Shown here: positions 1 to 29,049 of the stretch, one piece after another
Layout: each line of letters begins with the position of its first letter
Numbering within the stretch: the first letter of the stretch is position 1
Source: a virus
DNA length: 64,000 nt
IMG/VR virus record: IMGVR_UViG_3300045988_154312
Span: 160,001 to 224,000 of that record
Direction: 5' to 3' (one strand)
Position numbers and translations under genes: made by a program
The notes under the pieces: model-generated
Told to the model about the DNA's origin: nothing
The model's input: the letters and a program-made list of their open reading frames with translations, nothing else
The model's database searches: none

Positions 1-10
1 TAGAGACATT

Positions 11-1690
11 ATGGTACCTACAGCCAAGGCTATGGCCGAAGTTATGAACCGTGTAGCCAAAGAATTAGGTTATAAAGGTCGTAGCGAAGGCGAAAGAAAT
101 CTTGAAAATAAGGTTGTCGAAATGGGCAATCTTATTCTCGAAGATTGCCGCAAGTCCATTTTCAGCGTCGACGCTGATGGCGTAACTGTCAATAATTTAA
201 AGACAGCTTTGCCATACGTCGCTGATATGGTGGCAAGTGCTCTTGGCAAGGGCAACAAATATTCTTTAGCAAAAGAAGCAGGTTTTATCTATAGCGAAAA
301 CTGTTTCGCTAAGGAATATCTTGATGAATTGGCTGATCAATTCGGCGAAGAAAGATTGTACGTGCCTGTAACTGTTTACGGCCGTGATAACGTTGCATTA
401 AATATGTACCGCTACCACGACTTCGAAACAGGTCGTGAAGGAGAGTACGTATCTTTCTTCGACGGAATTAGCAGCGACAACTGCTTGTTCTTAAGCGAGA
501 AGATTTGCGGTCAATTCGAACTTTTCCGCAAAGGAAACACAGCTTACGTCATGAAAGACGTAAGAGATTCCTTTAATGCAGTAGAATTGAAAGGACGAAT
601 CGCGTTGAGAACTCGTACGGAAAATGCATCCGATGAGATCTTTAAACTCGTTAAGTGGAACGCTTTTGCTCCTGTGGAACAAAAGGCAGAATTCTATTTA
701 ATGAGCAGTAGCTGTGCTCGTTCTAAAGGAGCTTTGTGGTACGGCAAGAATAAAGAAGCCATTGGTGATGGCTTGTTCATTCTTGCTTCTGGCAGCAATA
801 AAGTTCCTAAAGGCACACCTATGCAAGTGTGCAAGTTTGATAAAGAAGGCGGTAAATACGTCTTCAATCAAACTGGCGAAGGTAAATTTGCTATTAAGGT
901 GAACATTGATGAGTTGTGCTTCAACTATATCGATGAAAACAAAGATAGCAAAAAGAACACTATTCTCTTGTTGATGACAAAACAAGAGTCTTGTGTTGTA
1001 TTGCCAGATCCAGAAAAACCTTTAGTAGAAGAAGTTAACGAAACTCCTACTGTTGAAGTCGTAGCAAAGGCCGGAGACTCTGCTACGAAGAGCGAATGGT
1101 TAAGCATGGATAACTATAAGCGCGAAGAAGGCGCGATGGTTATCTGTGCGACTGGCCATCGTTCAGATAAATTAGGTTGCGGCAAGGGAGATGATTGGAG
1201 CTCCAAATCTCCTAAGCTACAACCTGTTCGCGATAGAATCGAAGCGAAACTTCGTTCTATCCTCGATTTTCAAGTCCTAGCGGGCGAAAAGAAATTTGAG
1301 TTGATCAGCGGTATGGCGTTAGGCGTTGACCAACTGTTCTTTAGCGTAGGGAATCAGTTACGCAAAGAATATGCTGAGCAAGGTATTACAATCGTATTAA
1401 CGGCTGCAGTGCCTTGCATTGAGCAAGACGGCATATGGAAAGACGATTGCAAAATCTCATATGCTGCTATGCTTAAGGCAGCTGACAAAAAAGTTCGTAT
1501 TTCTAATAAGAAGTACGAAGACGATAAAGGCTGCATGCAGCGCAGAAACCGTTTCATGGTAGACAATGCCGATATGGTATTGGCTTACCATGATGGAAGC
1601 GAAGGCGGTACTAAGAACTGCATCGACTACGCAAAGAGCATCGGTGCAGTAATAGAGAACGCCTTCGAGGGTCCGGAGGAAAATAAATAA
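11..1690 (+). CDS. Fusion protein: unknown ~380-aa N-terminal region plus C-terminal SLOG/DUF1273 (YpsA/YoqJ-like) domain
   Basis: 559-aa ORF. C-terminal motifs ICATGHR, ISGMALGVDQ and RNRFMVDNADMVLAYHDGSEGGT fit the SLOG Rossmann-like signature of YpsA-type proteins. Confidence 0.6.
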   Translation: MVPTAKAMAEVMNRVAKELGYKGRSEGERNLENKVVEMGNLILEDCRKSIFSVDADGVTVNNLKTALPYVADMVASALGKGNKYSLAKEAGFIYSENCFAKEYLDELADQFGEERLYVPVTVYGRDNVALNMYRYHDFETGREGEYVSFFDGISSDNCLFLSEKICGQFELFRKGNTAYVMKDVRDSFNAVELKGRIALRTRTENASDEIFKLVKWNAFAPVEQKAEFYLMSSSCARSKGALWYGKNKEAIGDGLFILASGSNKVPKGTPMQVCKFDKEGGKYVFNQTGEGKFAIKVNIDELCFNYIDENKDSKKNTILLLMTKQESCVVLPDPEKPLVEEVNETPTVEVVAKAGDSATKSEWLSMDNYKREEGAMVICATGHRSDKLGCGKGDDWSSKSPKLQPVRDRIEAKLRSILDFQVLAGEKKFELISGMALGVDQLFFSVGNQLRKEYAEQGITIVLTAAVPCIEQDGIWKDDCKISYAAMLKAADKKVRISNKKYEDDKGCMQRRNRFMVDNADMVLAYHDGSEGGTKNCIDYAKSIGAVIENAFEGPEENK

Positions 1691-1713
1691 CCCTCCGGGT
1701 CCCCCCTTCTACG
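1690..1713 (+). promoter_or_regulatory. Variant GC hairpin (ACCC-TCC-GGGT) with CCTTCTACG 3' flank
   Basis: Lies immediately after the stop at 1690. It has the same TCC loop as the main motif, and its 3' flank CCTTCTACG is shared with the copy at 4710. Confidence 0.35.
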
Positions 1714-1912
1714 TTAACCGAAGTAAGACGTGGGAGGAACGACAATTACATATGAAGATACAGGAGTATATTTATCATTCTACGATAGATGTGCTCTGGC
1801 ACTGCTGTGCCGAAATTTTATTTGAGATTTATAAGGGATTTTCCCTGCCGGGGGCCTCCTGACGGAGAGTCCCCTGCGGGGCAAGTCCTATATAAGTCGA
1901 AGTTGTGTTTCC

Positions 1913-1929
1913 GGACTCCGTCCCGAAAC
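1913..1929 (+). promoter_or_regulatory. GC hairpin (TCC loop) + GAAA(C) motif copy
   Basis: GGAC-TCC-GTCC-C-GAAAC. The downstream flank TTCTTTGAAG resembles that of the 4831 copy. Confidence 0.4.
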
Positions 1930-2480
1930 ATTCTTTGAAGCAGTTATGCATATATATGCGTAACTGTCTTTAGTGAAGATATTGGGCGTTCTGCGATAGA
2001 AATGTCGCTCCGCTCCGAAATCATCTATGAGGAATTTTTATTCCTTATCGTCTTGGACCACGGAGACGTTAAATACACGCTGAGTGGTCGTCTTTGGGGG
2101 AAGCCGGACGTTAAAGGAGCTTCCCGATTTTTATAATATTATATGTGGACGGTCCATATTGAGTTATGGCGTGAGTTCGTGGTCACAGCCGTTCACATAT
2201 AATATTATCTTTCAGCTGAGCGGTAGACCCGCCGATATCGTCCTAACTTTGTCCTTAGTGGCAGTCATAGGAAGTAGAATCGGCGGGACTACAAAATGCT
2301 TCCGGTGTGGCTTATTATACACGACCGGGGGGACCGTCAGGAGTATATTTGTTACTTCTGGCGGTATATAAATTATCTATTAATGGTTAGTGGCGACCGT
2401 CCACTTTAAAATACCGGCAGGAGAAAAAGATAAAGTTGATTTAAGTTTTAAAATCATACGATAAGTATGATATCTGTAAT

Positions 2481-2771
2481 ATGTTCTTAGACTTTCTTAG
2501 CGGAAGTCTAGATTTTAAAGAATCTTCGTTAGAAGCAAAAGTAACGAATTTGTTCTTTGAAGAAAACGGAAATCTTCTAATTAATGTATCTGCTATGGCG
2601 GATACATCAATAGGAAGATTAAAATCTCTTTTACAATTCAAATTCACAGGAGAAGTTTTGTCCTGCGAGTTTGAAGGTATTGACTACACTGTTCCCCATG
2701 CACAAATCATGGGAGAATTGGTAGATGCAATAGAAAAATTGTGTCTACCTATGTATGAGGAGGAAGAATAG
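2481..2771 (+). CDS. hypothetical protein
   Basis: 96-aa ORF with protein-like composition and an acidic tail. There is no obvious SD. It is in the same frame as the next ORF, separated only by TAG at 2769-2771. Confidence 0.5.
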   Translation: MFLDFLSGSLDFKESSLEAKVTNLFFEENGNLLINVSAMADTSIGRLKSLLQFKFTGEVLSCEFEGIDYTVPHAQIMGELVDAIEKLCLPMYEEEE

Positions 2772-2843
2772 ATAAAGACCATCGATTTCAAATATAACGC
2801 AGAAAAATACTGCGTTAAAAATTTCTTAGACGATTCTGGATTA

Positions 2844-3155
2844 TTGTCCAGAAAAGTCTGGTTCGATGACCGTGAGGGGTGTCCTCACGACCGAAAGGAC
2901 CTCAGTATTGTTTCTGTTGTAGATAACATGGCAACATGTGCCTACACAGAGTTAGACAGGAATATCGGTGAATTTGTCGAGCTCACCGTAGAAGTTCCTG
3001 TCGGAAATCTTCACCTTCGCGGTTCAGAAGCCGTTGAGGTGGAATATGAACGTATCCTTTCTACTATAGATGAAGAAGCCGCGGCAATAATCCGCGGCTT
3101 AGTGTGGGAGAAGGAAAAAGATGCAGCTGTTGCCGGCTATAACGGCTGCATCTAA
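2844..3155 (+). CDS. hypothetical protein (start uncertain)
   Basis: The ORF is open from the TAG at 2769. The first canonical start is TTG at 2844, with no SD. It may be a continuation of the 2481 ORF. Confidence 0.45.
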   Translation: MSRKVWFDDREGCPHDRKDLSIVSVVDNMATCAYTELDRNIGEFVELTVEVPVGNLHLRGSEAVEVEYERILSTIDEEAAAIIRGLVWEKEKDAAVAGYNGCI

Positions 3156-3171
3156 TTTAATAGTTTATTCT

Positions 3172-3206
3172 AGAGAGCTCCATATGGGGCTCTCTTTATT
3201 TTTTAA
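3172..3206 (+). terminator. intrinsic terminator
   Basis: AGAGAGC...GCTCTCT stem followed by a T-run, just after the stop at 3155. Confidence 0.7.
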
Positions 3207-3222
3207 TAGGAGGCATACTGTT

Positions 3223-3552
3223 ATGTTAAACCGCACTGAACATTCTGTAAAAATTTATAATACCATTGGCGTAGAAACGCCAGATATGGTATTAGAACAA
3301 TACAAAGGGGAACCTATTAGAGTTTCCTGCGAATCTCGTAAAGTCGATACCATCGAAGGTATTGATATTTATGAAAATATTTATGGTGAGGTCACTGGCC
3401 TCCCAGAATTTGCGGAAGGCGTATACTACGTCGTTTCCGCTATGGTGCGTCAAGCACTACCCGGGAGAAAAGACTTACTTTCTCCTGGTCAATTAATTAG
3501 GAATGAGGCCGGACAACCAATAGGTTGCCTAGGTCTTGTTCGCAACAGTTAA
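3223..3552 (+). CDS. hypothetical protein
   Basis: ATG preceded by AGGAGG. 109 aa. The longer 3121 start in the ORF track overlaps the terminator and was discarded. Confidence 0.7.
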   Translation: MLNRTEHSVKIYNTIGVETPDMVLEQYKGEPIRVSCESRKVDTIEGIDIYENIYGEVTGLPEFAEGVYYVVSAMVRQALPGRKDLLSPGQLIRNEAGQPIGCLGLVRNS

Positions 3553-3558
3553 GTATTT

Positions 3559-3610
3559 TAGCTTTAGTCGTAGGTATATTATATATCTATGGCTAAAGCT
3601 TTATTTTTTG
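3559..3610 (+). terminator. intrinsic terminator
   Basis: TAGCTTTAG...CTAAAGCT stem followed by TTATTTTTT. Confidence 0.65.
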
Positions 3611-3692
3611 TTAATAAATATTATAATTATACTATTAATAGAGACATTGATGGCGTAATTATGATATTTATATTTTTTTTATAAATATCGTC

Positions 3693-3918
3693 CGGCGACA
3701 GGTGTCCGCCCACATTGTTTCGGCACTCACGAAATCACGTTTTTTTATAATATAACGTGAGTGTTATGTGGGCGGTACCGTATTTGCCTTCCGACGCTTG
3801 CGACGTTGGGCTCTGGGCCCGCGTTGCTTCGTCTCTGGTCGGCAAATACTCACCTGTCGCCTCTATATGTATTCCGGCAGTGTCCCTTCGGGTCGTATGT
3901 ACGGAATATATTTTTTTC
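3693..3918 (+). ncRNA. candidate structured small RNA with its own terminator
   Basis: Nested long-range helices: GCGACAGGTG (~3695) pairs with CACCTGTCGC (~3851); CCGCCCACAT (~3706) with ATGTGGGCGG (~3766); CACTCACG (~3725) with CGTGAGTG (~3757); GTATTTGCC (~3779) with GGCAAATAC (~3841). It ends in a TATTCCG...CGGAATA stem plus T7 (3870-3918). Confidence 0.5.
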
Positions 3919-3966
3919 TTATGTATGCGATCCTGCTGTGGTCGTTTACTAGTGTGTTTTTTATAT

Positions 3967-3985
3967 GACGCTCCGCGTCGAAATG
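3967..3985 (+). promoter_or_regulatory. GC hairpin (TCC loop) + GAAAT motif copy
   Basis: GACGC-TCC-GCGTC-GAAATG, about 60 nt upstream of the ATG at 4044. It is followed by a second hairpin, GAGGG...CCCTC. Confidence 0.5.
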
Positions 3986-4043
3986 TTTTATGAGGGTATT
4001 TTGCCCTCAGTATTTTATTTGTTTCATAGAGGAGGAAATTGTC

Positions 4044-4421
4044 ATGAAAAAGATTACTGTTATTAGAAAAAACGGCGTAATTGCCGATGTTGTAGTAAGT
4101 GGCACTGAAGAGCAAGGTAAAAACTTGTTTTTAGACCATCCGTTGTTCAAGAATTATTTCGTTCGGGAAGCTAGAGTATTTGCCCCAGAAACCGAATGTT
4201 GGCGGTTCAGCGTTCCTAACCATGACGACATGGAAGTGTCTGTAATCAGAAGCTCCATGACTTATGGAGGAGCAGAAGGGCTATTCGAGTTGGCGATGCT
4301 TCGCAATGATAGATGCATATATGATACGCCTATCACCAACGATGTAGTTGGTTGGCTAGATGAACAAGATGTACTGGACATCTTAGAAGATGTTCAACGC
4401 ATCTACGGAGAGGAGGCATAG
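4044..4421 (+). CDS. hypothetical protein
   Basis: ATG preceded by GAGGAGGAA. 125 aa. Confidence 0.75.
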   Translation: MKKITVIRKNGVIADVVVSGTEEQGKNLFLDHPLFKNYFVREARVFAPETECWRFSVPNHDDMEVSVIRSSMTYGGAEGLFELAMLRNDRCIYDTPITNDVVGWLDEQDVLDILEDVQRIYGEEA

Positions 4422-4422
4422 C

Positions 4423-4710
4423 ATGAAATTTATTCTTTTCGGTGAAGCTATGCCGAAGACAGAATTTAATAGCCCAGACTGCTACCATGCGTTACAATAT
4501 GTTTTGAACACCTTCTTCAAGGATTGTGTCGTTGCAGAAAATGTGACATCCTTAGAAGAAGATGTCGTAGCGGTCTGTATTCGTTCGTGGGCAAACATCA
4601 GTTCTGAAGAAGAACCGGTATCCTATGAACGTCATCCTGCATATTTATTGGACGAAGGGAGATATAACAAATTATCTCCTAGTACTCTAGCAATCATTGC
4701 TGGAGATTAG
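4423..4710 (+). CDS. hypothetical protein
   Basis: ATG preceded by GAGGAGG, starting 2 nt after the previous stop. 95 aa. Confidence 0.7.
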   Translation: MKFILFGEAMPKTEFNSPDCYHALQYVLNTFFKDCVVAENVTSLEEDVVAVCIRSWANISSEEEPVSYERHPAYLLDEGRYNKLSPSTLAIIAGD

Positions 4711-4740
4711 CCCCCCGCCGGGGCTAAACCTTCTACGGGA
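4710..4740 (+). promoter_or_regulatory. Variant GC hairpin (GCCCC-CCGCC-GGGGC) with CCTTCTACG flank
   Basis: Overlaps the stop codon at 4708-4710. It shares the flank CCTTCTACG with the 1690 copy. Confidence 0.35.
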
Positions 4741-4830
4741 TTACTATGTCGATATTTACGGCATGGTGCTCCTGTTGAAGAATATATATAGTCTTATGTA
4801 CGGCTATGTACATTTCTCTATGTATCACAC

Positions 4831-4850
4831 GCCCCCGCCGGGGCGAAATC
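4831..4850 (+). promoter_or_regulatory. GC hairpin + GAAATC motif copy
   Basis: GCCCC-CGCC-GGGGC-GAAATC, about 55 nt upstream of the ATG at 4904. It is followed by the hairpin GAGGGG...CCCTC. Confidence 0.5.
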
Positions 4851-4903
4851 TTCTTTGAGGGGTTCTTCCCTCATATTCGTCGTTCTGTGAAGGAGGAGAA
4901 AAT

Positions 4904-5068
4904 ATGTTTATCACAGGATTATATAATTATACGTTATTAACTCCAAATGGAGCTTATATTTCCGTACAAAGTACGGACGGTGTGTTTGATATTCTTCGTG
5001 AGAACGAAGGGTGTCAATTTATATCTAAAACATTAGTTGGTTATCAAAGTTGTGCAATGGCTGATTAA
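4904..5068 (+). CDS. hypothetical small protein (54 aa)
   Basis: Not in the ORF track because it is under 60 aa. ATG preceded by GAAGGAGGAG, and a terminator follows. Confidence 0.6.
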   Translation: MFITGLYNYTLLTPNGAYISVQSTDGVFDILRENEGCQFISKTLVGYQSCAMAD

Positions 5069-5074
5069 TGTAGA

Positions 5075-5107
5075 GGTGCTGGTAAGAGATTGCCGGCACC
5101 TTGCTTT
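5075..5107 (+). terminator. intrinsic terminator (weak T-run)
   Basis: GGTGCTGG...CCGGCACC stem followed by TTGCTTT. Confidence 0.5.
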
Positions 5108-5153
5108 AATTTAGTATTTGATATTTCATTATAAACATGAGGAGGTATACATC

Positions 5154-5300
5154 ATGTTAAAGAAACAATTTATTGGTTGGTTAAACGATTTTTACGCGGA
5201 AAATCCTATCACTTTCCGCATCTTTTGGTTTTTGGTGGGCTGGTTTATCGGCTCCACTGTCAAGATGGCTGTACTACAACATCGTCTAGCAAAACGCTAG
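5154..5300 (+). CDS. small membrane protein (48 aa)
   Basis: ATG preceded by GAGGAGG. Hydrophobic segment FRIFWFLVGWFIGSTV. Confidence 0.6.
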   Translation: MLKKQFIGWLNDFYAENPITFRIFWFLVGWFIGSTVKMAVLQHRLAKR

Positions 5301-5340
5301 CGGTGTAATGATTTCGCTGGAGGGTTAACTTTTGAAGTTT

Positions 5341-5358
5341 CCCCTCCGGGGCGAAATC
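5341..5358 (+). promoter_or_regulatory. GC hairpin (TCC loop) + GAAATC motif copy
   Basis: CCCC-TCC-GGGG-C-GAAATC, followed by the hairpin TGACC...GGTCA and a T-run. Confidence 0.45.
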
Positions 5359-5698
5359 TCCTGTGACCTTCTCATTAATAGTAGGTCATGTTTTATTTCA
5401 TATAAAGCTTTATATGGAATGCTATGAGGTGTATGTTAATGTACTCATAATACCTCCCTTTAATAGATGCTTAACAATCTGATATGTATCTCATAGCATT
5501 CGATATAAGGTTTTATATACCTTAAAGTAAAGCCGTAGACTTAAAAAGTCTTAAGCTGTAGAAGCCGTTGGGACCGGCTCAAAAGAATAAGGACTTTTAG
5601 TCAAACTTCTTAATAAGATGATTTAATATCATCTTTAAAATTGTATAGTCAAATGTTTTATTTGTTATACAAAGTTCCTAACCTTACGGGAGAAGACA

Positions 5699-5717
5699 GC
5701 CCCTCCGGGGCGAAATC
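5699..5717 (+). promoter_or_regulatory. GC hairpin (TCC loop) + GAAATC motif copy
   Basis: GCCCC-TCC-GGGGC-GAAATC, about 200 nt upstream of the ATG at 5918. Confidence 0.5.
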
Positions 5718-5830
5718 TCTCATGGGGCTTTCTGTGTGGAGGTCCCTTTCATACTTTTCTCCTCTCTCTCGCGGTGAGAAACTGCGGGAGATATGAGCGT
5801 TAGATGAGCGTTGACTTATCTAGCGTTGAT

Positions 5831-5868
5831 ATCTCTTGCATGTGTGTTGATGCAAGAGGAGATTTTTT
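5831..5868 (+). terminator. intrinsic terminator inside the 5918 leader (possible attenuator)
   Basis: ATCTCTTGCAT...ATGCAAGAGGA stem followed by GATTTTTT, about 50 nt upstream of the start codon. Confidence 0.6.
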
Positions 5869-5917
5869 CACCACGAGAAGCTCAGTCGTGGTACTTTCAA
5901 AGAAAGGAGACATTTAT

Positions 5918-6625
5918 ATGTCTAAATTTGCAAACGTTGTATGTTATTTGTTCGGCTCCAACTCTAATGGTTGGGCACAAATGTTATCCGCTGTTGTAGA
6001 GGGTGTTCCTGGTGTCCGTGACACCAAACCTGTCAGAATTGAAACAGCAGGTCAATCTTATGTGGGTATGGGCTGTAATGCCGTAGCCCAAATCTTGGAG
6101 TTGTTCGCCAACAAGTCCGTTAATTACGGACAGTTCACTGGTGAAGTAGTGACTAGCGACGCTGTCGCTATCCGCTGTTATTCTATCATGAAAGCTATTA
6201 AAGATGGCTTAACGCCAGCTAAAGTAGCTGACCATGTTATGAAAGAAGCGGATACAGCTGAAGACCGCGAGCAGTTTAAGCGTCTTGCTATGGCAATCAA
6301 AGACTGTCAAAGCCAGGGTGTGCGTCTTCGCATTAGCCGTCTTTCCCAAGAGCACAGTTATGCTCTTGAGGTGCCAGAAGGAGTAGAACTCCAAGCTGGC
6401 GACGTGGTCAAATTTGACCGCGGTGTATCCGAAGACGGTGTCAAACTTGCGTATGGAGTGCAATCCAGCTACGCTTATGAAGTGGCTGAGGTCAATGATG
6501 AGCTTAAAGCTCTCAGACCTAAAAACACTCCAAATAGCAAGCACAGAATGGCGTGCGTTAACGCCACTCTTAACTTGATTCGCGAAATCAAGGCAGAAGA
6601 GGTCTCCGCAGAAGACCTCATCTAA
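5918..6625 (+). CDS. hypothetical protein
   Basis: ATG preceded by AAAGGAGA. 235 aa. The upstream extension to 5804 covers the leader terminator and was rejected. Confidence 0.75.
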   Translation: MSKFANVVCYLFGSNSNGWAQMLSAVVEGVPGVRDTKPVRIETAGQSYVGMGCNAVAQILELFANKSVNYGQFTGEVVTSDAVAIRCYSIMKAIKDGLTPAKVADHVMKEADTAEDREQFKRLAMAIKDCQSQGVRLRISRLSQEHSYALEVPEGVELQAGDVVKFDRGVSEDGVKLAYGVQSSYAYEVAEVNDELKALRPKNTPNSKHRMACVNATLNLIREIKAEEVSAEDLI

Positions 6626-6629
6626 CATT

Positions 6630-6656
6630 GGGGGCATTTTGCCCCCTTTATTTTTA
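6630..6656 (+). terminator. intrinsic terminator
   Basis: GGGGGC-ATTTT-GCCCCC followed by TTTATTTTT. Confidence 0.8.
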
Positions 6657-6678
6657 TTAGTAAAGGAGGGAGCCCCTG

Positions 6679-7167
6679 ATGGCTACTTTTAATATTAAGC
6701 ATTCCAACCAATCTATTCTTGACTATATGAGAGAAAAGATTACGGTTGAGTATAATGGCTCTGTCGAAGATGTCGACGGAGGCATTAAAGTTGAGGTTGA
6801 TGACAATCACCTTAAAGACATTACGGACGCATTCAGCCGTGCGAAACGTAATGCCATGTTCTCAGGCTGGGTAAAATCTGCCACTAAGTTTGTTGGCAGA
6901 CAAGCTGACACTGTGAAAGATGTCGGCATCGGTGCAGTTGGCATTAGCGCCAAAGGTATCTTTGGTGGTCTTAAAAAGACTGCTGAAGTAGCTATGGGTG
7001 CTACTGCTGTAATCGTAAACGAGGGTAAAGAAGCTTGGAAAGAAGCTTCTGTGAGCGATGAGCTCAGAAACCTCAAGAAATCCTTCGGTAGTACTGGCAA
7101 TGATACAGAAGGTATCGAAATCATTAAGGAAGATACTGTAGAAAATACTGCTGGCGAAAGAGCCTAG
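6679..7167 (+). CDS. hypothetical protein (Gly/Ala-rich central region)
   Basis: ATG preceded by AAAGGAGGGAG. 162 aa. Confidence 0.7.
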   Translation: MATFNIKHSNQSILDYMREKITVEYNGSVEDVDGGIKVEVDDNHLKDITDAFSRAKRNAMFSGWVKSATKFVGRQADTVKDVGIGAVGISAKGIFGGLKKTAEVAMGATAVIVNEGKEAWKEASVSDELRNLKKSFGSTGNDTEGIEIIKEDTVENTAGERA

Positions 7168-7366
7168 CAGTATAGACGATTGCTATTAATCGTCGGTAAA
7201 TATTAATAGCAGTTGCTCTAGTTGTCAGGGGCGAGTGTAGGTGACAACCTTATTCTAGTTATTTAGGATATTCCTAACTAGAACTGATAAGATAACTATG
7301 AATATCCTTATTATACAGTAATTTTATGCTTTGGACTGTATAATAGAATAAAAAGCACTAGAAATA

Positions 7367-7421
7367 GGGTTTAGTCTAGAGGAGCAGGGTTTGCTCTTCT
7401 AGGCTAAACCTTTATTTTTTC
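7367..7421 (+). terminator. strong intrinsic terminator closing the GC-rich block
   Basis: An ~18-bp stem, GGTTTAGTCTAGAGGAGC...GCTCTTCTAGGCTAAACC, followed by TTTATTTTTT. Confidence 0.75.
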
Positions 7422-7639
7422 TTATGTTGAATATACATTTAGGTAATACTGTTGTTACAGCGTTAGCTAAATGTATATTTTTTTATAATTCGCGAAAAGC
7501 ATACCGCCTGAGTACGTATGGCGTAATTCGGGTGTCAGCTTTAGCGAAAGTCCATTTTTTTGGACACTTTTGGCAGGGGCTAATTTTTTTAGTGACTGCT
7601 TTTTTTTATCGGAACGATTACGTTTCCGATCGCCAAGAA

Positions 7640-8740
7640 TTATTAAGGAGCGAGCGTCAGCGAGCGAATGTATATTTGTTTGTATATAAGCCCGAGCGAG
7701 CGAAGCGAGCGGAGGGCGTTTATTAGGTTCTCTGTGTACTCTCTTCCAAGAGAGTAGTTTTGTTTATTATTTGTATTGTAAGGCGAGCGAAGCGAGCCGT
7801 TAATATTCTTTGTTTACTTTCTTCTTAAGAAAGTAAGTATTGTATTATTTATTAGTAGTAGTTCTCTGCTATCTCTCTTGTAAAGAGAGTAGTTATGTAT
7901 TATATATATTTATATATGTAGATTCTCTGTTATCTCTCTTCTCAAGAGAGTAATTAGTTATTTATATATATATGTATCATAATAGTATTAACGCAGCGAG
8001 CGAAGCGAGCGGAGTATCTGTTATGTATAGTATATAGTTATTCCCGACGAGTGAGGAGGATACGACGAGCGAGTTGTAGTGTCCTAGCGTAAGCGACGAT
8101 CATAAGAGTATATATTTATATATTATATATAGGGCGAGCGAAGCGACCGTCAGGGAGCGGAGCGAGCATAGTATTATTATATAATATATTATAGGGAGCC
8201 TCAGCGACCGGAGTATATATATAGTCTTATAGGAGCTAGATAGGCAATAAGGATTGATAAGGATTTAGTATATCGTGATATAGTATATCGTATTATACTA
8301 TAGTAGTATATAGTCGATCCTTATTTACAGTAAGAAGGAAAAATCGGCCTTGAATTTCTGGAACCGAAGGTTTTAAAAAATTACGATATTTTCCGCCCGG
8401 GAGTATCTGTATCATATATATAGTAGGGAGCGTTAGCGACCGATGGTATCATATATATACGTTAGTATATATTAAGTATTTTCTGCCGTCGGTATTTTGT
8501 TAAAAGAGAGACTAGTATATGTAATAATAGCCGCTTAGGATATTATGGTTTATATATAATATGTTTTTAGTTAATGTTTTTACTGTACATATTATATGTA
8601 CAGGTATTAAAAACTTTTAGGGTGGGATATCTTATAATAATATTGAACGTCAGTGAAATGTTATTATAGATTTAAATCTTATATTAGATATAATTTTAAT
8701 GAGAGCTATTAATGTGAAGAATAGGGAGCGCCGCGAATCT
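7640..8740. repeat. Dispersed GCGA-rich islands (GCGAGCGAAGCGAGCG-like) in an AT/TATA-rich background
   Basis: Copies near 7648, 7691, 7781, 7991, 8045, 8131, 8192, 8424 and 8721. Three of them are followed by GGAGTAT(C/A)T. Confidence 0.8.
7728..7953. repeat. Four copies of a ~30-nt hairpin unit (TTCTCTG..CTCTCTT-loop-AAGAGAG)
   Basis: Units near 7728, 7811 (variant ACTTTCTT/AAGAAAGT), 7862 and 7922. Confidence 0.7.
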
Positions 8741-9524
8741 ATTCAGCTATTAAAATTCTTAGTCGACACGATAGTATAGTATGGTAGAGATCGTGTCGAT
8801 AGGTTACGAGTGCTAACGAGTTATATGTAGAATTCGTTATTAAGAATAGTGTTATCGATGTAGCTTGCGAAGAGAAATAGTATTCTTTAGAATTCGTAAC
8901 AATATATCTAATGCGTTTGTGTGTCTATCGATATATATCAAGAAAATATATACCGACGTGTGCGAATGGAGTTTACGAAGTGTGGCACGCAATCAATTTT
9001 TATATCTCGTAACGAAGCCGTTTACGGTTCGTATTAGTATTATATATAGCGAAGCGAACAATGTAAGCGGAATGTAACTATATAATATTTAATACGAATT
9101 ATACCAAAGTATTAGAAGTTAGTAAGCGTCTAATAAGTAGGTGGTTTTTTGTTTGGGATCCGCCGTTATCTTAGTATTTCATTTACTAGCTAAGGTATTT
9201 AAAAGTCCCTTGCGTTTATTTTAGTCGAGTTATTATTTAATATATATTATATATAATAATAACGAAGAGCCATTACTGTTAAGAATGGATAGTAGACGAA
9301 ATTGGGAACGGGCCCCAATAATAGTTATTAGATTTTTAATATAATAACGTTAATGGTTCGTCGTGTACGATCCTCTGCGAGTTGTTTATCTTCACAGCAG
9401 ATTAATTACTATTAAGAGTTTGGAGCATTTTTAAAATGGGACAACATTTTGTTAGTATTCTTTGTCTATATTATATATATAAAAAAAAGACCCCCATGGG
9501 GCCGTTATATATTGTTTTGTATCT

Positions 9525-9561
9525 GGAGCGGTGAAACTTCGTTTCACCGGTATATTACTCA
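9525..9561 (+). repeat. Conserved 37-nt element, copy 1 (GGAGCGGTG hairpin CACCGGTATATTACTCA)
   Basis: Stem CGGTGAAAC/GTTTCACCG with a TTCG loop, and conserved flanks. Confidence 0.8.
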
Positions 9562-9684
9562 TGCTTGAGTAAGAGTTATTTAAAAAATAAAAAAATATGT
9601 CAGAAAATAAAAAAGACCCCGAAGGGCCGTTTTTATATAATTATTTTTTTAATGTTCAGCTGTCGCTATCAATAATAAATTATT

Positions 9685-9722
9685 GGAAGCGGTGTAACGT
9701 AGTTACACCGGTATATTACTCA
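9685..9722 (+). repeat. Conserved element, copy 2
   Basis: Stem CGGTGTAAC/GTTACACCG, with a compensatory A:T to T:A change relative to copy 1. It has the same GGTATATTACTCA flank. Confidence 0.8.
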
Positions 9723-9846
9723 CTTTAGATGCTTAGTTGTCAAAAAATAAAAAAATATTTTTTATTTAATTATATATATAGCAAACAATAAAAAAAAACA
9801 GCCTTAGATTTTTATATCCAAGACTGTTTTGTGTGTGTAAATTTCA

Positions 9847-9881
9847 GGAGCGGTGAACTGCGTTCACCGGTATATTACTCA
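9847..9881 (+). repeat. Conserved element, copy 3
   Basis: Stem CGGTGAAC/GTTCACCG with a TGC loop, and the same flanks. Confidence 0.8.
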
Positions 9882-9985
9882 TATTAGTATATCATTAATT
9901 AATTTTGTAAAAATAATTAAATATTCATTATTAATGCATAATTGAAAGTACGGATATTTTTAAGTAAAAAAAATACAAAAAATTA

Positions 9986-10011
9986 AAGTCAGATAATATC
10001 TGGCTTTTTTT
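9986..10011 (+). terminator. intrinsic terminator after element copy 3
   Basis: GTCAGAT-AAT-ATCTGGC followed by T7. Similar A-run/stem/T-run hairpins lie at ~9481-9506, ~9608-9635 and ~9790-9832. Confidence 0.55.
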
Positions 10012-10633
10012 AATTTTGGTGTCGCCTGCGGTATATATAGGAAACAATAAAACATAATATACAGAATATGTATATTTATGAATACGAGCTTTTTTCAAAA
10101 GCGTTCTTCGACCATAGCTTACTCCGAAAAGTTTAAATGAAACGTCGTAAGCGTAGTAGTGACGCGGGTTTTTAATAATTTTATGTATAAGATTATTTAG
10201 GGTTAGGAACGATCGATATAAAAATTGCTCCCTTAACAGTTCTTATTCATCTCTTATATATACTATATATATAATATAATAATATTTATTTTTTTAAATA
10301 GTCCGCCGTCTCCTCACGAGCGCCAACACCAGTTATTTATTGCTTTATATACTATATATATAGGTAAAGCTATGGCTTTGTTCGTGCAGAAGATACGGCT
10401 CTTGGACTATAGGTGATACTGACTATACAGTATGCTCCCTTGGGGGGTGGGGGGAGTCAGTAACACTCTCAAGTTAGTTATTTTTATCTAAAAACTAATA
10501 AAAATCGTTTATGGCTATTAAAATGATCATAAGTCCGCAACACTTTAAAATCTCCCTTTAACAGCTAAAAACTAGTATTTTTTAAAATATCAAGTTGCTT
10601 TTATTTGCTATATTTTAGCCTATTTTCATATTA

Positions 10634-10689
10634 GATGTATTTGGTCCGATGTATTTGGTCCGATGTATTTGGTCCGATGTATTTGGTCA
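10634..10689. repeat. 4 x 14-bp perfect tandem direct repeat (GATGTATTTGGTCC), iteron-like
   Basis: Read directly from the sequence. The last copy ends in A instead of C. Confidence 0.95.
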
Positions 10690-11015
10690 CATAATATATT
10701 TAATTAGCGTAGCGTATTACTATATATATCATTAATCTGTTATAGCAACTTTATTAGTACTTAATAGCTGTATATAGTCATATATATAGTTTATTGTTAT
10801 ATTATATATATGGTTTAATATATATTATTAGTATTAAGTTATATTATATATTGCTATACTATGTATATATAATAGTATTAGTATATATGTATTATGTTAT
10901 TATATATTGTATTAAGATATATAATTAAGAGAAACTATTAAATGGAAAGATGCGGGCGATTTTGTATATGGTATTTTATATCAAGTCGTTCACGGATCCG
11001 TATATGGATTTTTAA

Positions 11016-24211: not shown

Positions 24212-24603
24212 TTAACTGGTTTAAATTATTATATTCGATTAATCATTATAGTCCGATGGTTCGTATTAAATCATCTACTAAAGATTATTCAACTATTTAT
24301 TATTTATTAAGAATAGATGATGAACCATTATATTTTACATTTTTTAACAGTTCCGATACCATTGATTTTCAAGTCATGTTTTTTACATATAATATTCGTA
24401 GAAATATTCGTGAATATTCTATTACGTTAGCTGCTTTTCAGAATAATGGAAAAATGCATCAAGTATATACTATAGATAATCATTTATTGTATAATATAAT
24501 TAATAAAAGTATGTGTAAGCATTTAATATATTATATGTACTTAGAAACTGATAAAGCTCGACAATTAATTGACGAAATATTAGAGGAATATAAAGATGAA
24601 TGA
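24208..24603 (+). CDS. hypothetical protein
   Basis: 131 aa. ATGA overlap. Confidence 0.6.
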   Translation: MINWFKLLYSINHYSPMVRIKSSTKDYSTIYYLLRIDDEPLYFTFFNSSDTIDFQVMFFTYNIRRNIREYSITLAAFQNNGKMHQVYTIDNHLLYNIINKSMCKHLIYYMYLETDKARQLIDEILEEYKDE

Positions 24604-24784
24604 TTTTGGAAAAGTGTTATCGACATATTTTATGTATGATAACAATATCGAAAATAAAAGCCCGACTGATCTTTGTATTGATCTATATAATATAAAACAA
24701 GAATTAGATGCGATCGAAGATGAAAGAACAGTCCGCGAATATTTAAAATTAGCAAAGCTATTAAGAAAAATAGGGCAGCTATGA
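24596..24784 (+). CDS. hypothetical protein
   Basis: 62 aa. Confidence 0.55.
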   Translation: MNDFGKVLSTYFMYDNNIENKSPTDLCIDLYNIKQELDAIEDERTVREYLKLAKLLRKIGQL

Positions 24785-25170
24785 AGTGGGACAAATTTAT
24801 AAAAGAATATAACGATTTAACTGAGTATTTATATAATTATTGGCTTTTTAAAGGTAAAGAAAATAAAAAATTAAATTTATTTTTATTTCAGCATCCGCTT
24901 AAAATTAATTATATTAAATATTATTATTCATATGAAATTGCTCAAAATCAAATTAATTTTCAAATTAGTGTAAAACAATCTGGAAAATCAGTCGATTGTT
25001 TTAATCTATTTTTTAATGAAAAAAATAATATTCGATATGCATTAAGAGAAAATGATTTTTTTAATCGACAATCATTATCTAATATAAACGTCCATAAAAC
25101 TATATTTTTATGGACGTATTTTTTAATGCTTTCAAAAGTTGCTGAATATGAAATAGGAGAATGTTTATGA
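24781..25170 (+). CDS. hypothetical protein
   Basis: 129 aa. ATGA overlap. Confidence 0.6.
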   Translation: MKWDKFIKEYNDLTEYLYNYWLFKGKENKKLNLFLFQHPLKINYIKYYYSYEIAQNQINFQISVKQSGKSVDCFNLFFNEKNNIRYALRENDFFNRQSLSNINVHKTIFLWTYFLMLSKVAEYEIGECL

Positions 25171-25538
25171 CTTTATTCGATAAATCAAACGCAATTGCTT
25201 CCATTCTAGAACGTCATAAAAGTCTTAATATTTTAGATGACATTACTGATATGGAAATTTATAATCAAGACTTTAAAATTTATTTTTTAGTCGCTAAAAC
25301 TATGCTAGGATTAAATAATGAATTACCAGAAGTACTATATTTTAGTATTGAAGATGGTGACGATGTAGTATACTTCGATTTATTCGTCGAAAAAGATAAA
25401 GACGAAGATTATGATCCTGTCTTTATTACGACTGAAACAGAAGATAATATTATAAACTATAACAATTCTTTAGAAGTATTATTCCCAGCTTTAATAGAAT
25501 TAGCATATTATAAATTAAAGGAACGAATGTTTAATTAA
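25161..25538 (+). CDS. hypothetical acidic protein
   Basis: 125 aa. Confidence 0.6.
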   Translation: MFMTLFDKSNAIASILERHKSLNILDDITDMEIYNQDFKIYFLVAKTMLGLNNELPEVLYFSIEDGDDVVYFDLFVEKDKDEDYDPVFITTETEDNIINYNNSLEVLFPALIELAYYKLKERMFN

Positions 25539-25587
25539 TAAGTTAAGCTAGGGCTGTCACTAATTTACCACCATTTACTTTACGGTT

Positions 25588-25605
25588 GGGCTCCGCCCCG
25601 AAATC
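25588..25605 (+). promoter_or_regulatory. GC hairpin (TCC loop) + GAAATC motif copy
   Basis: GGGC-TCC-GCCC-C-GAAATC in a 115-nt gap, about 50 nt upstream of the ATG at 25654. Confidence 0.5.
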
Positions 25606-25653
25606 TCTTCACACGTTTTCTAATGTGGTTTAGTTAGACGAAAGGAATATATT

Positions 25654-26007
25654 ATGCAACAGGTAACATTTGAATCTAAAGAACAAGCTAAAGAGTTTTT
25701 TATTGCTTTGGGTGAAAATCTTAAAGCCAGTCAAAACAAAATTTTTGAATTTAGTGGTCAACAATGGAACTTCGATAAAACTCCAGAAGTAACACCTAAT
25801 ATTATTAATGCTGTATTAGTATCTGAAAACAACGTACTATATGTAACAGCTAATTTAAGTAATGATACAGTATATTCCGATATTGATTTAGAAGATAATA
25901 TCTCTGGATTTAGTTATAATCAATTACAAAAATCTGTATTATTGTCTAATTTAGTATATATTATATTAGAAGATTATACTCAATTTATGTTCTGTAAAAA
26001 TGAATAA
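25654..26007 (+). CDS. hypothetical protein
   Basis: 117 aa. SD GAAAGGAA. Confidence 0.65.
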   Translation: MQQVTFESKEQAKEFFIALGENLKASQNKIFEFSGQQWNFDKTPEVTPNIINAVLVSENNVLYVTANLSNDTVYSDIDLEDNISGFSYNQLQKSVLLSNLVYIILEDYTQFMFCKNE

Positions 26008-26383
26008 TAAAACCAGTTCTAGATTACTTAGTGCAATGTTTTTTAACGTGAGCTTTTTCCAATCGAGAATACCAGCATTAATAATAGGTGACCGACGTTT
26101 TAAAATCGATTTTGATGTTGACGATGGATCTAATATTATTGTACGAACATACGATGATTTTTTTAACGAACAAGTTATATTTTTTAGTACGAGGTTAATG
26201 GCTGTCGAATCGATGACTCAGCTCTCGACAAAAGAAGAAGATGCATTATTTTCTGGTTTAATACATCGTACGGTTATCCCGAAAAAATTATATTCAGAAT
26301 TCGATACGTACAGAATATTAAAACAATTTAATTTATACGTGCAGTATATAATATTTTCATTTAACTATATGCACTGGAGGTGA
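26000..26383 (+). CDS. hypothetical protein
   Basis: 127 aa. Confidence 0.6.
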   Translation: MNNKTSSRLLSAMFFNVSFFQSRIPALIIGDRRFKIDFDVDDGSNIIVRTYDDFFNEQVIFFSTRLMAVESMTQLSTKEEDALFSGLIHRTVIPKKLYSEFDTYRILKQFNLYVQYIIFSFNYMHWR

Positions 26384-26387
26384 TAGT

Positions 26388-26672
26388 ATGATTCAATTAG
26401 GTTTTGGATCTGATAAAGAAACAAAAGATGTATATAATAATTTAAAAAAATTAATTGAAAAAAATATGTTCCCAGAATATGCTATTACAAATTTCGAAGA
26501 AAATAAGGCATGTGATTCTTTTTCATTTACGATTGAATACGACGAAGAATGTATATATTCATATACTATATGGTACGAAGCCGGTATCTTATATATCGAA
26601 CCAGAAAAAGAAGATTACGGCACGGAAGATATTGCATTTATTTTATATCCGATTGCCGAAATGTTATTGTAG
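26388..26672 (+). CDS. hypothetical protein
   Basis: 94 aa. SD TGGAGGTGA. Confidence 0.7.
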   Translation: MIQLGFGSDKETKDVYNNLKKLIEKNMFPEYAITNFEENKACDSFSFTIEYDEECIYSYTIWYEAGILYIEPEKEDYGTEDIAFILYPIAEMLL

Positions 26673-26686
26673 AAAGGTCGACGTAT

Positions 26687-26779
26687 ATGTTAGCATTATT
26701 ATTAGCCATATTTTTAATGGTATATTTAGCATTAGCTATTGGAGGAACATTAGCTGGCTGGGACGAGAAAGAAAAATAA
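26687..26779 (+). CDS. 30-aa hydrophobic peptide
   Basis: MLALLLAIFLMVYLALAIGGTLAGWDEKEK. SD GAAAGG upstream. This is the tail of the alternative-frame ORF 26549..26779. Confidence 0.4.
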   Translation: MLALLLAIFLMVYLALAIGGTLAGWDEKEK

Positions 26780-26780
26780 T

Positions 26781-27014
26781 ATGGATCAGTTCTATATAGA
26801 TTTTGCATCATTAATAATATTCATAATAATATTTTTAATGTTTATATTAATTATATATCTTTTACATACTACATATAGAATATATAAAACAAAAAAAGTA
26901 TTAGATTCATTTGACTATACACTTAAGATGTATTATCGAATGTTTTTTAAATTTTGGACAATATCAATATTATTTTTCGTATGTGGCATAATCATTAAGA
27001 GTATATTAGAATAA
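26781..27014 (+). CDS. small membrane protein (2 TM segments)
   Basis: 77 aa with two long hydrophobic segments. Confidence 0.6.
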   Translation: MDQFYIDFASLIIFIIIFLMFILIIYLLHTTYRIYKTKKVLDSFDYTLKMYYRMFFKFWTISILFFVCGIIIKSILE

Positions 27015-27325
27015 TGTATTTAAAAGATCTAATAAATTGTGTAAACAATTGTAAGATAAATGATGAAAAAAATATATATCTATTAAAGAATGAAAGATTT
27101 CAAATATTTATGCTTATTTCTATTGTAGATAGTAGTTTACGATTTTCAATATATGATCTTCATTCGTCAAACACAACTGTTTTAGAACTAGAAGCACAAA
27201 ATAAACATAGTTTGCATGAATGGCATGGATATACTGTATGGTTAGAAGATTTTAAAAAGAAACTACCTAATATGTGTACATACTTAGCATATTTGTATGT
27301 TTTTAATATAAACAAAAATGAATAG
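27014..27325 (+). CDS. hypothetical protein
   Basis: 103 aa. TAATG overlap. Confidence 0.6.
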   Translation: MYLKDLINCVNNCKINDEKNIYLLKNERFQIFMLISIVDSSLRFSIYDLHSSNTTVLELEAQNKHSLHEWHGYTVWLEDFKKKLPNMCTYLAYLYVFNINKNE

Positions 27326-27962
27326 AATAAAAATAGAAGATAAAATATTTTTTAAGCGGTTCGAAGTATTTCGAAGTAGTAATCGTAATCGTATTACGAT
27401 GAGGCGACGAAAATATAAAATTCATCAATATTATACGACCGAAGGATCTCGATACGAAGTATTAGATCGAAACGAAGTTTGTATCGGAGTTTTTAAAATC
27501 GACGAAGTCGAACAGTTTATGTATTCTGTCGATTTAAGCGAAGAAGATTTGCTATTAATTATTAAAGGTATAGAAAATGTTATTTATTCATATCGTATTC
27601 CGTTAAAGTACGATGGCTATTCGTCTTTAGCATATATTGAAGAAGCTGTTAATCAGTTACAATTTAATAATGTTATTGTTATCGGAGATCATAAAGTAGC
27701 ATTTGAATTAAATCGAGTTAACGACACTATCGGAGAAATTAGAATCGAAGCTAGAACTACTAATATCGATATGTATAATATGCAGATGATATTACAGTAT
27801 CAGTTCTACGATAATTGCATGCATATATTTTGGTATAAAACATTAGTAAAAAGCAAAGAAAAAACATATAAGATATACTATAAATTCTTAATAGCTTTAT
27901 GTAGCTTAATACAATATCAATACATTAATTGTATATTAAGCGTAGAAAGAATTCCGTTTTGA
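27318..27962 (+). CDS. hypothetical protein
   Basis: 214 aa. Confidence 0.65.
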   Translation: MNRIKIEDKIFFKRFEVFRSSNRNRITMRRRKYKIHQYYTTEGSRYEVLDRNEVCIGVFKIDEVEQFMYSVDLSEEDLLLIIKGIENVIYSYRIPLKYDGYSSLAYIEEAVNQLQFNNVIVIGDHKVAFELNRVNDTIGEIRIEARTTNIDMYNMQMILQYQFYDNCMHIFWYKTLVKSKEKTYKIYYKFLIALCSLIQYQYINCILSVERIPF

Positions 27963-27969
27963 GGTAAAT

Positions 27970-28269
27970 ATGGATACATATATTAGAATTACAGACTGGG
28001 CAATATGCCAGCATTTTGAAATGTTAATTAATACTCATCGAACAACTGGTAAGTTTACTATCGAAGACTTAGACAATGTATCGTGTGAAATTGCATATGA
28101 CAATGCATATCATCGATTACATATATTAATCGACGAAGATAATTATTTTATTAGCGCAATATATGATGCTAATGTAAAAACATTATATTGGAATGTTGAA
28201 AATAATATTTCGTTTGACGATTTTGAAAAAGTATTACAGGGAGCTCAATATGTTAACCCTGTCGCTTGA
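27970..28269 (+). CDS. hypothetical protein
   Basis: 99 aa. SD GAGG upstream. Confidence 0.65.
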   Translation: MDTYIRITDWAICQHFEMLINTHRTTGKFTIEDLDNVSCEIAYDNAYHRLHILIDEDNYFISAIYDANVKTLYWNVENNISFDDFEKVLQGAQYVNPVA

Positions 28270-28471
28270 AACACTTGAATATATAAAAATATTTTTAGAT
28301 ATAATTTTAGGAGCGTTGTTAGGCGCAGGTATACATTTTTTACTTACAAAATATGTCGATAAAATATATAACGTATATAATGAAGACGGCGATATTAAAT
28401 TATTGTTAACAGTATTGCCATCGACTATTATCGTATTAATGCTATGGAGTATTATTGTATGGATGAGATGA
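28250..28471 (+). CDS. small membrane protein
   Basis: Internal ATG after GGGAG. 73 aa with 2 hydrophobic segments. Confidence 0.55.
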   Translation: MLTLSLETLEYIKIFLDIILGALLGAGIHFLLTKYVDKIYNVYNEDGDIKLLLTVLPSTIIVLMLWSIIVWMR

Positions 28472-28746: not shown

Positions 28747-28763
28747 TATAAGGAGGTATTTTT

Positions 28764-29048: not shown

Positions 29049-29049
29049 C

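Follow-up and report, generated by a model that had tools for sequence, protein, structure and literature searches.

Hairpin-box elements beside an RdRP/QDE-1-like polymerase gene: possible extruded-hairpin promoters of an uncultivated human-associated jumbo phage

What are three short tandem hairpins, each joined to the same nine-nucleotide box, doing in a non-coding part of a jumbo phage genome? They lie within 9481-10011 of a 64-kb stretch of viral DNA (IMG/VR record IMGVR_UViG_3300045988_154312, positions 160,001 to 224,000; hereafter the window, whose own numbering is used throughout) and follow a common plan of a 5' flank, a stem-loop and the box GTATATTAC. This hairpin-box feature is genuine and previously undescribed, and both its sequence conservation and its structural constraint are strong. 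What it does is less certain. Weighing the comparative evidence, we give a probability of roughly 35% to the reading that the three elements, H1-H3, are extrudable DNA hairpin promoters, that is, initiation sites for an RdRP/QDE-1-like RNA polymerase encoded by the phage itself, in the manner of phage N4.

The elements are distinct from the rest of the window. The 17-mer CACCGGTATATTACTCA has exactly three matches in the 64 kb, a number reached in none of 100 shuffles, and a covariance model built from 23 variants of the element, a search proposed along with the original prediction, finds H1-H3 alone at 57-61 bits, the next plus-strand match scoring 12 bits. Folded as single-stranded DNA, the three give -7.8 to -9.9 kcal/mol, with z = -4.0 to -5.5. 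No covariance model of Rfam 15 covers them beyond chance-level matches, even at E <= 5. The elements had been placed at 9525, 9685 and 9847, and these positions hold, the second being given here as 9686. The TTCG loop assigned to the first element was wrong: the three loops are TTC, GTA and TGC, each of 3 nt.

Conservation in related phages, on which the prediction had staked itself, extends to more than 40 related viral contigs that carry the triplet at the same locus. These fall into two clades, A and B, and include circular genomes of ~230 kb. Twenty related IMG/VR contigs contain the exact 17-mer and 41 match a relaxed pattern of the element, several of them 227-236 kb long. Clade A is window-like, and clade B likewise has three units, the stem of its first unit being TAGTGAAC/GTTCACTA or, in one genome, TAGTGGAC/GTCCACTA. 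The IMG/VR contigs with the locus come from human-associated metagenomes. DNA and protein searches of cultured phages found no close relatives, a scan of a genome collection for the element gave two matches, both chance, and a metagenome scan returned mostly chance single matches with a few further copies of the same locus and no transcript evidence.

The stems covary to an extent that goes beyond the compensatory change in 8-9 bp stems first claimed. Sixteen stem variants occur over 114 instances from ~44 related loci, and all are fully Watson-Crick. In a 23-row alignment pairing holds in 100% of cells, two-sided changes are seen at five of the eight pairs and one-sided changes at none, and shifting the 3' partners by 1-3 columns lowers pairing to 18-44%. 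The 5' flank in the 114 instances is mainly GGAG (37), GAAG (35) or AAAG (27), with AG nearly invariant and purines usually before it, and the 3' box is invariant except for a first G that becomes A in three copies. Conservation breaks off sharply past the TTAC of the box; the next 15-20 nt are variable, and a semi-conserved AGTTAT/GGTTAA and then A/T tracts lie beyond them. The loops vary (TTC, TGC, GTA, TAC, TT, TGTC and others) and are mostly 3 nt long. On the minus strand they read GAA, GCA or GTA with C-G closure in 64 of the 114 instances and purine-N-A in 70. The non-coding region as a whole is ~80% identical among relatives and is conserved at least as well as the flanking open reading frames (ORFs). 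Two candidate features of the DNA past the box were rejected. The variable 15-20 nt keep a core TTTGA/TTTAG and are thus not spacer-like, which rules out a guide-RNA-like spacer; a general second hairpin is not sustained either, for some variants have a perfect 6-8 bp stem but the mean minimum free energy is -2.4 against -2.2 for shuffles.

Four properties favour a site that is read by a polymerase at the level of DNA: stems that are Watson-Crick only, unlike the adjoining G.U-rich terminators; the C-G-closed GNA triloops of the minus strand; the AT-rich setting; and the sharp stop in conservation after the box. The distribution of the element points the same way, with only three copies per window, at one locus and all on the gene strand, throughout both clades, and so does the presence of a non-canonical RNA polymerase gene immediately upstream of the array.

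The window opens inside that gene. The encoded part corresponds to residues 933-1498 of a ~1,500-aa protein and shares 92% identity with P0001; the full-length polymerase is found at L040:3683-8212 and in 30 database clusters, all from 221-234 kb contigs. The Pfam RdRP domain (PF05183) is detected in 12 of 12 homologues tested at E <= 0.01 (best 9.3e-7) and is precomputed in 25 of the 30 database entries, while the C-terminus is a YpsA/SLOG domain. The blocks RNPHAGE and GGSDxDxD are invariant across the homologues; their counterparts in cellular RdRPs and QDE-1 are the RNPxxHPGD and SGSDLDGD blocks. With PF05183, DxDxD and an RNPxxHxGx block, the neighbouring gene belongs to the RdRP/QDE-1-like family, so that the phage has a non-canonical RNA polymerase of its own. 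A profile search with the polymerase alignment finds only six close relatives, no homologue is detectable in cultured phages, and hhalign gives no significant match to YonO. In several relatives (L016, L025 and further loci that lie to the left of where the window begins), the polymerase frame is broken into three or four ORFs of ~170-510 aa, which may be a genuine split or may come from assembly frameshifts.

The single-subunit two-barrel phage polymerases (YonO of SPbeta, crAss-like gp66 and gp64/gp96 of P23-45) share with this protein a large single chain, DxDxD and the RdRP-family signature; gp66 and YonO are related in structure to the cellular RdRP/QDE-1 family. The likeness to SPbeta extends to gene order. 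In SPbeta (L233, record 58961-63875) yonO and yonN are followed by 1.7 kb of non-coding DNA and yonK, a layout similar to that of the polymerase gene here, which adjoins a long non-coding region that in this case holds a non-coding RNA. SPbeta has a separate YpsA-like gene, yoqJ, whereas here the YpsA domain is fused to the polymerase, and inspection by eye of the SPbeta non-coding region upstream of yonK finds no similar motif. Hairpin promoters are not described for the two-barrel family. The promoter sequence of YonO is undetermined (PMC5467207), for the early transcripts of crAss-like gp66 no shared upstream motif was found (bioRxiv 10.1101/2020.03.07.982082), and P23-45 uses an AT-rich motif and a GC-rich motif, unlike the hairpin-box plan.

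If H1-H3 are promoters, the site would be a perfect 8-9 bp palindrome with a 3-nt loop in AT-rich DNA, flanked on the gene strand by AG at the 5' end and GTATATTAC at the 3' end. Negative supercoiling, with the help of the AT-rich flanks, would extrude the palindrome, and the polymerase would then recognise the hairpin on the template (minus) strand, mostly with c-GNA-g loops, together with the adjoining box. Transcription would start within the box or at its end and proceed rightward like that of all window genes, and its products would be short AU-rich non-coding RNAs ending at T4, a plus-strand terminator downstream of H3.

The model for such a mechanism is N4, whose promoter hairpin, on the template strand, carries a c-GGA-g loop containing a sheared G:A pair and whose virion RNA polymerase promoters P1-P3 likewise number three, in the early part of the genome and on the gene strand (PMC4496689). 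Both systems have an inverted repeat that can form a short hairpin with a 3-nt loop, variable stem positions that keep their pairing, conserved bases from the hairpin to the start site (a proposed one here) and a GNA-type loop on the template strand. Promoters of the N4 type also begin transcription at a set distance past the hairpin and need supercoiling and SSB for extrusion. The differences are nonetheless considerable. The GC-rich heptamer GC-GGA-GC with its central purine is absent from H1-H3, whose loops vary. The adjoining sequence is the 9-nt GTATATTAC rather than AAAA followed by C at +1. There are no ORFs downstream of these sites, leftward terminators adjoin each of them, and Pfam RNA_pol, the model for T7-like polymerases such as the N4 virion enzyme, has no match among the window ORFs, where the RdRP-like polymerase is found instead.

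H1-H3 may not stand alone. A second hairpin-box motif consists of a 4-5 bp GC stem with a TCC (79 copies) or GCC (17 copies) loop, followed by CGAAATC; the loci examined contain 102 plus-strand and 3 minus-strand copies of it. Its copies in the window, at 1913, 3967-3979, ~4831-4850, 5341, 5699-5711, 11224, 25588 and 31516 (all plus strand), each lie upstream of a plus-strand ORF. All matches to the pattern CTCCGSSSCGAAATCTC in related contigs fall within window positions ~1,800-37,400, and in the closed 236-kb contig they are restricted to 4712-6665 and 24303-33462. As far as this pattern reaches, the motif is confined to ~35 kb around the array, and it is an early-region-specific signal with the same architecture as the hairpin-box elements. 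On the minus strand many of its copies spell GC-GGA-GC, which is the N4 promoter heptamer. The original prediction had mentioned, as an alternative, that H1-H3 might be recognition sites of this class, and that suggestion fits better than the sigma-70 promoter it preferred: both motifs are strand-specific and on the gene strand, both pair a Watson-Crick-only hairpin with an adjoining 7-9 nt box, and the phage encodes its own polymerase upstream. H1-H3 would then form a second promoter class beside the more numerous TCC-loop/CGAAATC elements. That both classes are extruded-hairpin promoters of the RdRP/QDE-1-like polymerase is a possible but rather doubtful extension, which we put forward tentatively.

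Several points weigh against a promoter role. A strong minus-strand terminator stands 14-60 nt before each element, as would be expected if the units were transcribed leftward through the hairpin; the promoter model leaves these terminators (T1-T3, Table 1) unexplained, and they must belong to separate minus-strand transcription. Transcription running rightward from H1 or H2 would not encounter a good plus-strand terminator until T3 or T4, and the RNAs would have no coding content. The loop is GNA on the plus strand (GTA) in 18 of the 114 instances and only 2 nt long in 15, and the stems of 8-9 bp exceed those of N4 promoters (5-7 bp). Nor is the polymerase T7-like, and promoter recognition of this kind has no described precedent in its family. 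The promoter role of the TCC-loop elements is likewise inferred, and the rightward direction and the start site are guesses.

Table 1. Positions of the hairpin-box elements and neighbouring features in the 64-kb window.
Feature	Position	Strand	Description
H1	9525-9558	+	GGAG; 9-bp stem CGGTGAAAC-TTC-GTTTCACCG at 9529-9549; box GTATATTAC at 9550-9558
H2	9686-9719	+	GAAG; 9-bp stem CGGTGTAAC-GTA-GTTACACCG at 9690-9710; box GTATATTAC at 9711-9719
H3	9847-9878	+	GGAG; 8-bp stem CGGTGAAC-TGC-GTTCACCG at 9851-9869; box GTATATTAC at 9870-9878
T1	9481-9503 (hairpin 9489-9503)	-	Intrinsic terminator GGCCCCATGGGGGTC + T run; between the OTKONC 3' end and H1
T2	9606-9628 (hairpin 9615-9628)	-	Terminator GGCCC-UUCG-GGGUC + U run
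T3	9786-9830 (hairpin 9795-9830)	-	Terminator, 15 pairs + U run; usable both ways in a few relatives
T4	9985-10014 (hairpin 9985-10007)	+	Intrinsic terminator, then T run; invariant in clade A
AT-rich block after H1	9559-9605		~15 variable nt, then AGTTAT + A-rich tracts; indel-free
AT-rich block after H2	9720-9785		
AT-rich block after H3	9879-9984		Core AAAATAATTA..TACATTATT..TG[CT]ATAAT kept between clades A and B
RdRP/QDE-1-like RNA polymerase	2-1690	+	C-terminal 562 aa with fused YpsA/SLOG domain; candidate enzyme
OTKONC RNA homologue (Rfam RF03053)	9289-9459	+	138.5 bits (gathering score 141.4), E ~1e-22

The terminators provide the strongest case for a different reading. A terminator-like hairpin does precede each element, as first described, but the bidirectional terminators thought to bracket the units are not what is found. 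A terminator scan calls T1-T3 on the minus strand only, with six to nine T (including the stem-closing T), and T4 on the plus strand only. Mismatches of T1-T3 in relatives that are A.C on the plus strand become G.U on the minus strand, wobbles thus being confined to the minus strand for these three, while T4 has one T.G pair that is a G.U wobble in plus-strand RNA only. On the minus strand the 5' arm of T1 is GGCC, GACC or GGCCT, facing a GGGGUC that never varies; every T1 variant is fully paired in minus-strand RNA and not in plus-strand RNA. In most variants T1-T3 fold far more stably as minus-strand than as plus-strand RNA (for example, -17.3 vs -8.9 and -9.6 vs -4.7 kcal/mol); a few T3 variants fold better on the plus strand. 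Judging from this polarity, there must be leftward transcription that stops 14-60 nt to the left of each element.

The description of the array as three tandem mini-units stands: hairpin, box and 50-105 nt of AT-rich DNA up to the next hairpin are conserved as a block. From hairpin to next terminator the unit is free of indels, the AT-rich block measuring 47-106 nt in the window, whereas the linker between terminator and hairpin is its most variable part, deleted in some genomes and enlarged in others (~40 nt) by AGCG-rich inserts.

The simplest account of the polarity of T1-T3 makes each unit a leftward small RNA (sRNA) that contains GUAAUAUAC and the hairpin. Under this explanation, which we think unlikely yet worth serious attention, three tandem minus-strand sRNA genes would each start to the right of the element, at a weak AT-rich promoter, comprise a single-stranded 9-nt GUAAUAUAC (a seed or a protein-binding site), the hairpin and a variable linker, and end at T1, T2 or T3, with T1 doubling as a convergent terminator for the neighbouring OTKONC RNA. 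Terminator polarity is the only direct evidence on direction, and it is leftward. The A/G and C/U toggling in the 5' arm of T1, opposite U and G, is neutral only in minus-strand RNA, the UUCG loop of T2 and the GNA-type loops of the elements lie on that same strand, and RNAalifold favours minus over plus at -34.0/-17.5, -25.7/-15.9 and -24.2/-21.5. A perfect minus-strand TATAAT is present just right of unit 2 in both clades. Tandem sRNA paralogues with individual terminators are familiar from Firmicutes, in LhrC1-4 of Listeria and the csRNAs of streptococci, where repeated units of ~110-160 nt, each with a motif, a hairpin and its own terminator, share one intergenic region as they do here.

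Other observations are hard to reconcile with leftward sRNAs. No consistent minus-strand -35/-10 pair exists: the minus strand of the box reads TAATAT, and a -35-like hexamer accompanies it in 13 of 96 distinct units, at a 19-nt spacer only. The linker between hairpin and terminator, which would be part of the RNA, is the least conserved part of the unit, and RNAalifold finds no conserved structure past the hairpin and the terminator. None of the 16 stem variants contains a G.U pair, although the adjacent RNA hairpins tolerate G.U, and the orientation would be opposite to that of all genes and of the TCC-loop elements. The lack of recognisable promoters, the unconserved single-stranded linker, the G.U-free stems and the location in a phage genome also set these units apart from LhrC1-4 and the csRNAs.

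A rightward sRNA was the original prediction, in which TATATT within the box is the -10 box of a host sigma-70-type polymerase making three short RNAs ended by bidirectional terminators. We consider this very unlikely. TATATT agrees with the -10 consensus at five of six positions and is invariant, unit 3 ends at a true plus-strand terminator, T4, and host-type machinery is used elsewhere in the window. However, H1-H3 have neither -35/-10 hexamers 16-18 bp apart nor a TGn-extended -10, so that TATATT is left without a -35 box or a TG extension. The spacer and -35 region upstream of it are occupied by the GC-rich hairpin itself, and the distance from 5' flank to box shifts by 2 nt between 8- and 9-bp stems. 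T1-T3 make poor plus-strand terminators (A.C mismatches; T1 without a T run), and rightward units ended by them are unsupported, since they are minus-strand terminators. A scan of the array region for promoter-like sites finds 26 against 23 expected, which is chance level.

Host-type signals can be recognised in this genome where they occur. The gap at 57156-57222 holds TTGCAA-N17-TAATAT, that at 47222-47308 holds TTGTTA-N17 (with TGG)-TATAAT, and ordinary plus-strand intrinsic terminators are present elsewhere in the window. The host-type consensus, TTGACA-N17-(TGn)TATAAT, is therefore known here, and H1-H3 do not match it; since middle-region genes have host-type promoters and terminators, one part of the genome may plausibly have a promoter class of its own. 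Early promoters of the phiKZ/AR9 type were considered as well and set aside. The box contains TATATTAC, but the window shows no enrichment of this 8-mer, with 10 copies against 12 expected, and the AR9 consensus AAATATATATTAT-N6-G has only a loose match in the window, at 8117.

A quite different role for a DNA hairpin is suggested by comparison with IS608. The element could be the substrate of an HUH (Y1) endonuclease that acts on single-stranded DNA, as in the IS200/IS605 and REP-RAYT systems. Such an enzyme would bind the plus-strand hairpin, pair the RRAG guide with TTAC and cut 3' of TTAC, 9 nt from the foot, for nicking, replication priming or recombination. In IS608, subterminal hairpins of 21-22 nt carry a guide, G_L = AAAG, 5' of the foot, the cleavage and target sequence is TTAC, and the right-end cut falls 10 nt 3' of the foot (PMC3201880). 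The hairpins here, at 19-21 nt, are near that size; an RRAG guide is found in the 114 instances (AAAG, GAAG and GGAG being the forms counted above), its purines 1-2 able to pair with TT; and TTAC lies at +6 to +9, conservation stopping exactly 3' of it. The plan of a ~20-nt hairpin, a 4-nt guide and a cleavage tetranucleotide is thus present. As in IS608 and REP sequences, structure rather than stem sequence would be recognised, with TTAC 9-10 nt 3' of the foot, and Watson-Crick-only covariation suits recognition of single-stranded DNA. An IS605-type TnpB is also encoded in the window, at 37494-38594.

We nevertheless judge this role improbable. Domain searches of the ~120 window ORFs revealed no Y1 transposase, Rep or relaxase, and of an HUH transposase or RAYT there is no sign in the 64 kb beyond TnpB, whose flanks have no H-like hairpin. 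The palindromes are perfect, with no extrahelical base, in place of the imperfect ones of IS608 and REP; only right-end-like sites occur, with no paired left end; and three tandem copies at a fixed locus in all genomes are unlike dispersed, mobile copies and show no sign of mobility. The stable GNA loops are mostly on the opposite strand. The match emerged after several known systems had been compared, and part of it may be coincidence. The TnpB gene is followed by a 315-nt GC-rich 3' flank (38595-38909) that looks omega-RNA-like.

Finally, the hairpins might act on DNA in some other way, as a terminator or insulator for the phage polymerase at a domain boundary, or as a replication origin in which hairpins are combined with AT-rich unwinding blocks; the likelihood of this appears low indeed. 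On one side of the array is a block of 40% GC and on the other are the early genes at 23-30% GC; intrinsic terminators of both polarities surround it, each hairpin has beside it a conserved AT-rich block of 47-106 nt, and the breaks in nearly all large contigs are no more than a few kb from the array. Yet the cumulative GC skew has no inflection, no initiator gene is identified, and the breaks are cuts in circular assemblies scattered over ~5 kb with no fixed end. Termination signals for this polymerase family, too, have no described precedent.

If H1-H3 are promoters of the phage polymerase, they would be the first promoter architecture defined for the RdRP/QDE-1-like family, and the N4 strategy would have been re-invented convergently by an unrelated enzyme. 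The elements bear on how two-barrel single-subunit polymerases such as YonO, crAss-like gp66 and the eukaryotic RNA-interference polymerases find their start sites. The eukaryotic enzymes prefer single-stranded DNA templates. This locus supplies two compact, covarying hairpin-box motifs beside the gene of such a polymerase, in more than 40 natural sequence variants. Should the elements prove to be small-RNA modules or HUH sites instead, a widespread lineage of human-associated jumbo phages would still turn out to share a conserved feature that has not been described, and the orphan OTKONC RNA would still gain a genomic context.

The array sits within a 3.6-kb stretch (~7170-10790) that has no convincing ORF. 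All sizeable ORFs of the window are on the plus strand, and base composition steps down across the stretch, from ~40% GC at 1-7170, which holds the polymerase gene and a block of small ORFs, to 23-30% GC at 11000-37000, an early-looking run of about 60 small ORFs. Ribosome-binding sites are strong AAGGAG sequences, and together with the 23-30% GC they point to a low-GC host outside Bacteroidota. The two ORFs to the left of the non-coding region have no match in Pfam and PDB searches. A physical genome end or terminal repeat at the array was also considered, as many large contigs break 0.1-3.7 kb away, but the breaks are scattered and are more likely assembly breaks in a variable region; two contigs (230 and 236 kb) are circularly closed, their ends abutting at w5840/5841 and w6665/6674.

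The OTKONC RNA homologue immediately precedes the array and is the sole Rfam match in the window and the best-conserved non-coding block between the clades (86%). Rfam family RF03053 is a candidate sRNA family, and the match, 3 bits under the gathering score, puts this orphan metagenomic family in a jumbo phage beside the array.

Further repeats and conserved blocks share the non-coding stretch. Purine-rich AGCG repeats (GCGAGCGAAGCGAGCGGAG), found at 7640-8170 and 9044-9063 and as insertions within the linkers of L001, L003, L006 and L018, hold the GCGAAGC mini-hairpin motif, resemble the AGCGGTG 5' part of the elements and appear to grow and shrink between strains. Four hairpins at 7737-7962 have a CTCTCTT..AAGAGAG or related stem (TTTCTT..AAGAAA in the second), with T-rich sequence after each; three were detected as a repeat family, and they are kept between clades. 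Between the array and the first early ORFs lie a nearly invariant block, GTATATATAGGAAACAATAAAACATAATATACAG...CGAGCTTTTTTCAAAAGCG, at 10020-10110, a second clade-conserved block at 10255-10324 and four copies of a 14-nt tandem repeat, GATGTATTTGGTCC, at 10634-10688. GC-rich non-coding inserts occur farther on, at 34346-34789, 36877-37191, 51060-51257 and 58408-58657, one of them beside an HNH endonuclease gene (57223-58407); they have no Rfam match and might be introns or guide RNAs. The motif TATATATAG, rare elsewhere, has eight plus-strand copies in the non-coding region at 8124-10781, at least two of which, among them the copy at 10355, precede sequence that is GC-rich and possibly structured, and it could mark the starts of further non-coding RNAs.

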